In this document: one piece after another, positions 62,001 to 64,000 of the stretch
Numbering within the stretch: position 1 is the stretch's first letter
Layout: each line of letters begins with the position of its first letter
Origin: Escherichia coli
Lineage (GTDB): Bacteria > Pseudomonadota > Gammaproteobacteria > Enterobacterales > Enterobacteriaceae
DNA length: 64,000 nucleotides
NCBI RefSeq assembly: GCF_046105845.1
Contig: NZ_CP151004.1
Reading direction: 5' to 3' (one strand)
Program-made: the position numbers

Positions 62001-64000
62001 GGTAAAATATCTAAACCACAAAAAGCATATTTAGAAAGGCCCTGGACAAGTTCGTAATGGAGTTTTAGAACATTGATCGAACCTTCAGTACGAAAGGGAA
62101 AAACGGCAAGAGTGGTGGTCGACTTTACCGGTTCATTATCGGTCACAATCACAATAGGTACAGTAAAACGGTATCCACGACCATAGACCGTTTCGATATA
62201 CTTACACTGTTTATTCTCATGCAAAAGTTTGCGCAATGCATAAATACATCGTGTTAGAGATTCATCACTGGCAACACTCGCGCTCCAGACCTTATCGATA
62301 ATCTCTTCTTTGCTAACAATTTCACCGTCAGCATTAAGCAATAGAATAATAACGCCAAGTTCTTTCGGGGGAATATGATATTCTTTGTTTTTGAATAATA
62401 ATATTCCATTGTTTTTTAATACAAAGTCGCCAAATATATATTGTTGTGTATTATTTTTTCCATGTTGCAGTTGCATAGAACGCTCCTTCCGTTTTCTCTA
62501 TTCATAGTATTAATTTGATTAATATAAAATAAAGTATTGGCAGAATTGCTCTATCAAAAAACGCTCATTTTGTAAGATTGTGATGAAGAAATGAATGAAA
62601 GTTGATGCTTAATAATATGAAACGCTGGTCCCATTTTTCGGGACCAGATAGTGGGCGATAATTGTGGGTGTTACTTAATCAGAAACGTAAATAATCTTTC
62701 GCAGAATCAAACAACGCAGTAATGGTTGAAGATAATAATTTGATAATTGTATCGTAGGTGGAGTTGGCTGTACTGTATTTAGTCGTGATAACCTGCACGT
62801 CGGTTTTCATGTTTTCTGCCTGGCTGTTATAACCCGCCAGCCATGCCTGGTATTCAGCCGTGCTTATTTCGTAGCCGGTGAATTCTTTAGATATATTTTT
62901 TTCCTTCCCTTTATCGTCCCTATGAACCATTGAGTCTGAAGACTGACTCATACTGTCTATAATCTGAGGGTTGGGAATAATAACATACAGACCGCTACCT
63001 TGCGGTTCAACTTCGACAATCGGAGAAGGTGTGCGGTGTTTGGGATCGGGTGGAATTACCGGAAGTCCTAAAGCGGCGCACCATTTTTCTGCTTCTTCCA
63101 GTGGAACACCAATTTTGTCAGCTGGTGCCGGAGGGTATAAAACATAGTCTGGATTGTAATGATAGTGGAAATCACCATTAGGATATTTATCGATATAATA
63201 AAAATGCATCAAGGCCTTTTGAAATGCATTGACATCAAAAACTATCGCATCACCTTTTTTATTAGAGTGAGTCCACTTTCCCATATTGCTTTGGATATGT
63301 TCACTGAAGTCCTGCCAGTATGCGCTCATTATCTCAACGCTATTTGCATAGATTTCGAGGTAGTCGCTACCGAGCACACTCATCAAATCAGCAATATCAC
63401 TGCATATATATTTATCACTTTTAAATTCGCTTGAACTACTGGCCGTTAAAGTACTGCTGGTTGCTGAACTTCTCACTTCAGGTGCAGAACTCTCTAAAGA
63501 AGCGATAGCGTGAGTTAAGGTTCCTTTGGTCGTTGCCATTGCAATTGACCCGGTTGTGTTGTGAGCAACGTTAGCCAGGGTTTTTCTCACAGAGTTATGC
63601 AGGGTCAATATTTTAGCGGGATCCTTTAATTTTCCGTCAATAGTATTAACATTTTCTGTAAGCTGCAGAACGTTTTTTATCAGCGAATAACTTTCGTGTA
63701 AGAGCGCAGATCCTTTCTCTGACAGGTTCTCAGTTGGGAAATTTCTGAGCATGTTTTTAACGAAGTTGAGTTGTATGTCATGCTGGCATTTCCAGTCTTC
63801 ATTTCGCGGGCTACGTTCACTGACTAAAGTTGATAGTTTTTCAACATCTTTCTTGAGCATAGCGCCAATATTATTATCTTTACTGGCGCTGTTATACAAA
63901 TTACCCTCGCTTTTGCTGTTTTCCAGTTGATGAGACTCCTCACTTTGCGAGGATGCCTCTTTAAGAGGAATGTTTGCATTCTGCTGACGTAAAATATCTA

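Follow-up and report, generated by a model that had tools for sequence, protein, structure and literature searches.

Where does a gene begin when the available sequence stops short of its first codon, and what kind of protein would the whole of it encode? The question is raised by the right-hand edge of the window analyzed here, a stretch of 64,000 nucleotides (nt) of Escherichia coli DNA (contig NZ_CP151004.1, assembly GCF_046105845.1), where a minus-strand reading frame at 62679..64000 is cut off while still open. Our findings very probably identify this feature as the 3' 1322 nt of eipD, which encodes a needle-tip protein of the SipD/IpaD (SctA) family and belongs to the eip (selC-B) island, the translocon set for the accessory type III secretion system ETT2. 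eipD is a named, annotated and published E. coli gene, and what is new here is only descriptive detail on its N-terminal extension; beyond its correct annotation, a known gene truncated by the edge of a window is of little interest.

Identity and start of eipD

The family to which the frame belongs is evident from profile and sequence searches alike. PF06511 (T3SS_TC) matches residues 158-437 of the window fragment with E=3e-34 and 119.5 bits, covering model positions 115-355 of 355, and the same domain is carried by all nine homologues (9/9) returned by a word-indexed protein search. Among PDB sequences the matches are SipD chains (E~1e-24), a 407-amino-acid (aa) Chromobacterium protein (1.5e-22), IpaD (~1e-17) and BipD (7e-12), in agreement with the first-pass annotation of this DNA, which had recognized a tip-protein signature and recommended alignment with these three proteins. 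By megablast, 730 of the 5426 complete E. coli genomes searched contain region 60700-64000, each as one copy with at least 80% query coverage; over the eipD region these genomes are 96-99% identical to the window, and the RefSeq labels on the copies read iatC, eilA and 'IpaD/SipD/SspD family type III secretion system needle tip protein'. The closest copy is 99.4% identical over 3.3 kb and 99.1% over eipD itself. No identical eipD allele occurs among the 5426 genomes (best 99.1% over 1401 nt), and the substitutions S32 and Y45 in the N-terminal part are private to the window allele. The sole one of 731 matching records with less than 80% query coverage is NZ_CP028192.1 (487105-492894, strain CFSAN018748), whose eipD, split by the insertion sequence IS2, is an example of locus attrition.

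Read on the minus strand, positions 62679-63998 comprise 440 codons, which are codons 11-449 and a terminal TGA (62679-62681), the only stop among them, while bases 63999-64000 are the last two of codon 10. The frame is thus open to position 64000, as had been claimed from a hand translation, and its N-terminal text, DILRQQNANIPLKEASSQSEESHQLENSKSEGNLYNSASKD..., is the same as in that translation. The open reading frame (ORF) listing nevertheless gives 62679..63899, starting at a TTG at 63897-63899 (residue 44). Because the frame meets no upstream stop inside the window, this TTG is simply the first start-like codon, and its listing as the start is an artefact of truncation.

The bases in question can be read in related genomes. 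We examined the surroundings of eipD in four E. coli relatives, in three of which the gene is intact (L001, from NZ_AP022087.1; L003; and L004) and in one of which it is split by IS2 (L005, from NZ_CP028192.1). The tip-protein coding sequence of L001 (WP_024044713.1; 1350 nt, 449 aa) is 99.1% identical to the window eipD and reaches 28 nt beyond the equivalent of window position 64000, where it is preceded by TTTAAGGAGGAATGACAC-ATG-ATT-AAT-AAA, with a Shine-Dalgarno sequence, AAGGAGG, 7 nt from the ATG. All four relatives also have a TGA in frame, two codons upstream of this ATG, and the upstream gene, a separate ORF, stops at a TAA 43 nt before it. The arrangement of ATG, AAGGAGG and in-frame TGA is kept in 4/4 relatives, down to 96.2% identity, with few substitutions differing in the intergenic sequence. 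The annotated length of eipD is 1350 nt in all three intact relatives, and 2735 sequences group into one protein cluster at 90% identity, whose representative has 449 aa and begins MINKDNNLNI. This indicates that the window is without only the first 10 codons (30 nt, MINKDNNLNI) and that the full EipD has 449 aa, including the segment MINKDNNLNIDILR upstream of the internal starts; the start is taken from relatives since no genome in the collection is identical to the window. Extension past position 64000 had been proposed as a check, and in the relatives it located both the stop of the upstream gene and an ATG close to a ribosome-binding site. Of the two starts that had been left open, the relatives favor the one beyond the window over the internal ATG, and the expectation of a protein longer than 440 aa, and longer than SipD, holds (449 aa vs 343 aa).

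One argument for the distant start had been put too strongly. The 34 open codons upstream of the TTG had been called unlikely by chance, yet the local base frequencies (A 0.34, C 0.21, G 0.20, T 0.25) give a stop probability of 0.063 per codon, and 33-34 open codons then arise by chance with P~0.11-0.12, about 1 in 9. In accordance with this value, ~12% of the stop-to-stop runs in non-coding frames of 60779-64000 are at least 33-34 codons long. The open stretch by itself is thus weak evidence, and it is the related genomes that are decisive.

Predicted structure and role of EipD

We modeled EipD with AlphaFold2 on a 121-sequence alignment, and the model has a mean predicted local distance difference test score (pLDDT) of 76. 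Residues 1-51, of which 11-51 lie at 63876..63998 on the minus strand, as do all the segments that follow, are predicted to be disordered and without secondary structure (pLDDT 30-37), and residues 11-51, which are Ser/Asn/Glu/Gln-rich, would contain the presumed type III secretion signal region. They lead into an enlarged helical N-terminal domain at residues 52-179 (63492..63875; pLDDT 57-74), with five predicted helices at 52-71, 79-95, 104-129, 137-156 and 161-179, which is joined by a Ser/Thr-rich flexible linker at residues ~180-204 (63417..63491; pLDDT 42-46) to a SipD/IpaD-type core at residues 205-449 (62682..63416; pLDDT mostly 85-98). The N-terminal domain occupies the position of the self-chaperoning helical hairpin of SipD and IpaD, in a moderate-confidence model whose full-length superpositions give root-mean-square deviations (rmsd) of 13-19 Å. 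The core is predicted to consist of a long central helix (205-246), an alpha/beta distal domain (249-389) and a long C-terminal helix (390-448), so that the coiled coil of two long helices and the mixed alpha/beta distal domain that characterize the tip family both appear in the predicted structure. The C-terminal helix bears the family motif QxLTxKYSxANSxxDxxxKxLSSTI, here as ...TKYSTANSTYDTIIKLLSSTI..., and the near-invariant columns of the 121-sequence alignment are W396, Q412, Y418, A421, N422, D426, K430, L432, S433 and K444. Relative to SipD, the distal domain carries two insertions, one proline-rich (PVIPPDPKHRTPSPIVEVEPQ) and one charged (HRDDKGKEKNISKEF).

The length of EipD places it in the upper tail of its family without making it unique. 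We searched 1.84 billion cluster representatives exhaustively with phmmer and obtained 237 matches at E<=0.001. The 131 listed matches that reach 250 aa have a median length of 363, a 95th percentile of 433 and a maximum of 544, and five of these 131 have 449 aa or more, which puts EipD within the longest ~4%. Every match in this search that extends into residues 1-143 belongs to the E. coli EipD cluster, and for this stretch no homologue outside E. coli was detected. By BLASTP, similarity between EipD and the tip protein of E. albertii (482 aa) or a rarely seen E. coli form (432 aa) sets in only near residue 187, is confined to the C-terminal two thirds and amounts to 47-49% identity, and a 484-aa allele (P0002), 89% identical, has a 35-residue insertion in the linker, VPEDIQATEINSSLFSMLIQKQKKAMSGSSASNSN, at about residue 180 (columns 231-265 of alignment A1). 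The failure of the N-terminal parts to align across the family, together with a Pfam match that sets in only at model position 115, indicates that the N-terminal domain turns over rapidly and that most of the variation in length arises there.

By analogy with the tip-protein family, a mechanism for EipD can be proposed. The disordered N-terminus would act as the type III secretion signal, and the helical N-terminal domain would chaperone the protein from within, covering the central coiled coil up to the time of secretion. The ETT2 needle (EprI) would be the docking site of the C-terminal helix, and there a pentamer of EipD may cap the needle, gate secretion and provide a platform for a pore formed by EipB and the protein in the EipC position. 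EilA, encoded directly downstream, would switch the operon on, as stated for the eip genes in PMC4210603 and PMC11068852, which cite Sheikh et al. 2006. SipD and IpaD respond to bile salts. We see a slim chance that the enlarged N-terminal region and the proline-rich insertion of EipD form a lineage-specific sensing or regulatory module, with an activating signal or host target unlike that of SipD/IpaD.

Selection on eipD and competing explanations

The ratio of nonsynonymous to synonymous substitution rates (dN/dS), calculated by the Nei-Gojobori method for the window copy against three relatives, is 0.07-0.15 over the whole frame. It falls to 0.00-0.05 in residues 205-449, where dS reaches 0.19, and rises to 0.21-0.41 in residues 11-204. 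Residues 1-31 contain four variable codons, of which four are synonymous and none nonsynonymous, and residues 32-56 have four positions with nonsynonymous and two with synonymous variation, so that variation in the codons upstream of the internal ATG (residue 57) is mostly synonymous. This codon variation, small in number, and the dN/dS values favor the upstream ATG as the place where translation starts and speak for purifying selection that has been sustained.

The same evidence bears on the proposal that translation begins internally, at the TTG (residue 44) or at the ATG of MLKKDVEKL (residue 57), to give a protein of ~393-406 aa. The ORF listing does offer the TTG, the residues that would be lost are in large part those predicted to be disordered (1-51), alleles differ at several amino acids within residues 32-45, and the open stretch on its own could have arisen with the chance probability of 11-12% calculated above. 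Set against this, no Shine-Dalgarno sequence precedes the internal ATG (context CAGTAAAGATAATAATATTGGCGCTATG), whereas the upstream ATG has a perfect AAGGAGG in 4/4 relatives; residues 1-31 vary without a single amino-acid replacement, and 449 aa is the annotated length in every intact copy examined. We consider an internal start very unlikely. A frame that runs on past the edge of the window into the upstream gene, as a fusion of a SipC-like and a SipD-like protein, would account for the lack of a stop before position 64000, but both the in-frame TGA just ahead of the ATG and the TAA that ends the upstream gene interrupt it in the relatives, which leaves this explanation with hardly any probability at all.

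Several points weigh against reading the frame as a 449-aa EipD with the role proposed above. The bases of the start codon lie outside the window, and the predicted start rests on relatives whose identity over the gene does not exceed 99.1%. EipD scores below the equivalog cutoff of TIGR02553 (135.9 bits, E=2e-39, vs 219.25) and far below that of the SipD model NF011858 (99.3 bits vs 619); it is thus a divergent member, whose membership in the family holds at the Pfam level. The N-terminal domain is modeled with moderate confidence, and its chaperone role is suggested by position. We found no published experiment on the secretion of EipD, on its location at the needle or on EipD itself. ETT2 is degraded in most E. 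coli, with widespread mutational attrition (PMC7058095, PMC11068852), and the ETT2 apparatus locus lies outside the window.

These last observations, and the IS2 insertion that splits eipD in L005, would also fit a gene that looks intact and is functionally orphaned, a relic heading to decay whose product is perhaps never secreted. The frame, however, is intact over 440 codons, its dN/dS is low overall and close to zero in the core between alleles with dS up to 0.19, as sustained purifying selection would produce, and just one of the 731 matching records falls short of 80% query coverage. The eip locus has moreover been reported to co-occur with intact ETT2 (PMC11068852, PMC7058095). A relic therefore appears improbable, though less so than an internal start. 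The internal start, the upstream fusion and a pseudogene were rejected on evidence from the ribosome-binding site, the stop codons and dN/dS. We thus retain the reading of eipD as a tip-protein gene translated from the ATG beyond the window, and the purifying selection on it is an argument for continued use of the eip translocon set in the lineages that keep eip, despite the decaying reputation of ETT2.

The eip operon and island

eipD is the last gene of a minus-strand operon in the order eicA - 60-aa ORF - eipB - eipC - eipD, the upstream members of which were read in L001. There, eipD is preceded in turn by genes for a 383-aa hypothetical protein, a 593-aa YopB/SseC translocon subunit, the 60-aa ORF and a SycD/LcrH chaperone, beyond which lie yicS, nlpA, yicL, setC and tRNA-Sec. 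The 593-aa protein, EipB, matches the SipB model NF011901 (E=2e-32) and has hydrophobic segments at ~311-375 and ~421-460, and the chaperone, EicA, matches the SicA model NF011859 (E=3e-44); a translocator accompanied by a class II (SicA/IpgC/LcrH) chaperone is therefore present in L001, in sequence that falls outside the window.

The prediction that translocon genes, with a SipC-like gene first among them, lie directly upstream was borne out with one caveat: SipB-like and SicA-like genes are there, and a 383-aa gene (L001 12373-13524, minus strand) stands in the SipC position, but its product has no detected similarity to SipC or IpaC, and for this reason we refer to it as SipC-position rather than SipC-like. 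The protein in this EipC position gave no NCBIfam, Pfam or PDB-sequence match, and a tblastn search of the full PLSDB plasmid set, in which the ipaC-bearing virulence plasmids of Shigella should be represented, returned only E. coli copies of itself. It contains no 19-residue window with a Kyte-Doolittle mean above 1.6, and it has an Ala/Gly-rich apolar stretch at ~172-200. Published reviews describe EipC as an IpaC homologue, a relationship that was not detected at the sequence level here. Copies of the EipC-position protein in two records of the plasmid collection are ~83% identical, which indicates that it evolves much faster than the EipD core. One such divergent copy (~83% aa identity) lies at 4471-5619 of NZ_CP134361.1, a 13,231-bp record filed as a non-mobilizable E. 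coli plasmid; the record may represent a piece of chromosome entered as a plasmid, or else an eip island that has diverged. The 60-aa ORF between eicA and eipB (L001 15374-15556, minus strand; MNINGKNSSFTPEELIRKYHEEAP...) has no family match, and we know of no counterpart at the same position in the operons of SPI-1 (pathogenicity island 1 of Salmonella) or Shigella.

On the other side of eipD, 32 nt past its stop, a consensus scan found a terminator-like hairpin at 62625..62647 on the minus strand, CTGGTCCCGAAAAATGGGACCAG followed by CGTTTCATAT, with a 9-bp stem that includes 6 GC pairs; as a pattern match, it probably marks where the eicA-eipBCD transcript ends. The next gene is eilA (60779..62476, minus strand), assigned by the HilA/EilA model NF009037 (E=6.8e-287, 952 bits vs a cutoff of 589) and by RefSeq annotation. 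Divergent from it is iatC (= air / eaeX; 48157..60729, plus strand), the leftmost gene of the eip island, which encodes a giant Ig-repeat inverse autotransporter adhesin as a 4190-aa ORF and is so annotated by RefSeq in relatives. Its product is 3705 aa long in NZ_AP022087.1 and in strain M114, and the number of its Big repeats is known from the literature to vary between strains. The iatC repeat core at 52000-58000 has 61-62% guanine plus cytosine (GC) within an island otherwise at 35-41%. From eilA to eipD the GC content is 35-41%, against ~51% in the backbone, which is consistent with an acquired island.

The eip (selC-B) island is described as six genes inserted between yicM and nlpA, encoding EipB, EipC, EipD, EicA, EilA and EaeX/Air (PMC11068852, PMC7058095). 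The window and L001 together present the same picture, an insertion between yicM (nepI; 46724-47956 in the window) and nlpA, near tRNA-Sec, with the genes eaeX/air (iatC), eilA, eipD, eipC, eipB and eicA.

Other features of the window

The window is the first 64 kb of the E. coli chromosome. It opens at dnaA (ORF 1..1404) and continues through dnaN, recF, gyrB ... uhpABCT, adeD, adeQ, yicN and nepI, an order that matches annotated E. coli chromosomes. Between ilvBN and uhpA, at 33686-36705 on the plus strand, lie ORFs of 435 aa (33686-34993) and 498 aa (35209-36705), neither of which has a Pfam, NCBIfam or PADLOC match. They are covered to at least 80% in only 451 of the 5426 complete E. coli genomes, where each carries a hypothetical-protein annotation, and the same spot in strain M114 holds different hypothetical genes (160 and 375 aa), so this looks like a variable two-gene islet. 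Between yicN and nepI, at 45878-46544 on the minus strand, is a two-gene cassette consisting of a 107-aa helix-turn-helix, MqsA/NadS-like antitoxin candidate and a 119-aa partner that is annotated in a relative as a RelE/ParE-family toxin.

Comparison with known systems

EipD shares PF06511 and an expanded N-terminal part with the tip protein of Chromobacterium violaceum Cpi-1 (PDB 2p7n, 407 aa) and with uncharacterized representatives of 456-544 aa, though the N-terminal regions of these long members do not align with its own. IpaD of Shigella (332 aa) and BipD of Burkholderia (~310 aa) have PF06511 and the core fold in common with EipD, the structural match to truncated IpaD having a template modeling (TM) score of ~0.82 and that to BipD an E-value of 1.5e-5. 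Both are shorter, with 19-29% identity and no detectable similarity to the N-terminal domain of EipD.

SipD of Salmonella SPI-1 (343 aa; PDB 3nzz, 2ym9, 7rye) can be compared residue by residue. The EipD core superposes on chain 7rye_F of the needle-tip complex with a target-normalised TM score of 0.85 and an rmsd of 3.0 Å, at ~30% identity over ~250 columns (Foldseek). The two proteins share the C-terminal helix motif, and their genes the order chaperone - major translocator - minor translocator - tip. In the HMMER alignment, with a shift of +10 to full-length numbering, EipD 181 aligns to SipD 104 and EipD 448 to SipD 342, and the 106 extra residues of EipD thus divide into ~77 in the N-terminal part up to the linker and ~29 in the distal-domain insertions. 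The N-terminus of EipD has no sequence similarity to that of SipD and is predicted to form five helices behind a 50-residue disordered head, in place of a hairpin. The gene 3' of the tip gene also differs, being the regulator eilA for eipD and sipA for sipD.

The eip/selC-B island itself was described in enteroaggregative E. coli (EAEC) 042, by Ren et al. 2004 and Sheikh et al. 2006 according to PMC7058095 and PMC11068852. The window copy of eipD differs from the known eip copies in being a non-identical allele and in being truncated by the edge. It has in common with the EipD of EAEC 042 the gene itself, its chromosomal position and, in the relatives read, the 449-aa product, and the shared order runs nepI/yicM - iatC(air/eaeX) - eilA - eipD - eipC - eipB - eicA - yicS/nlpA - selC.

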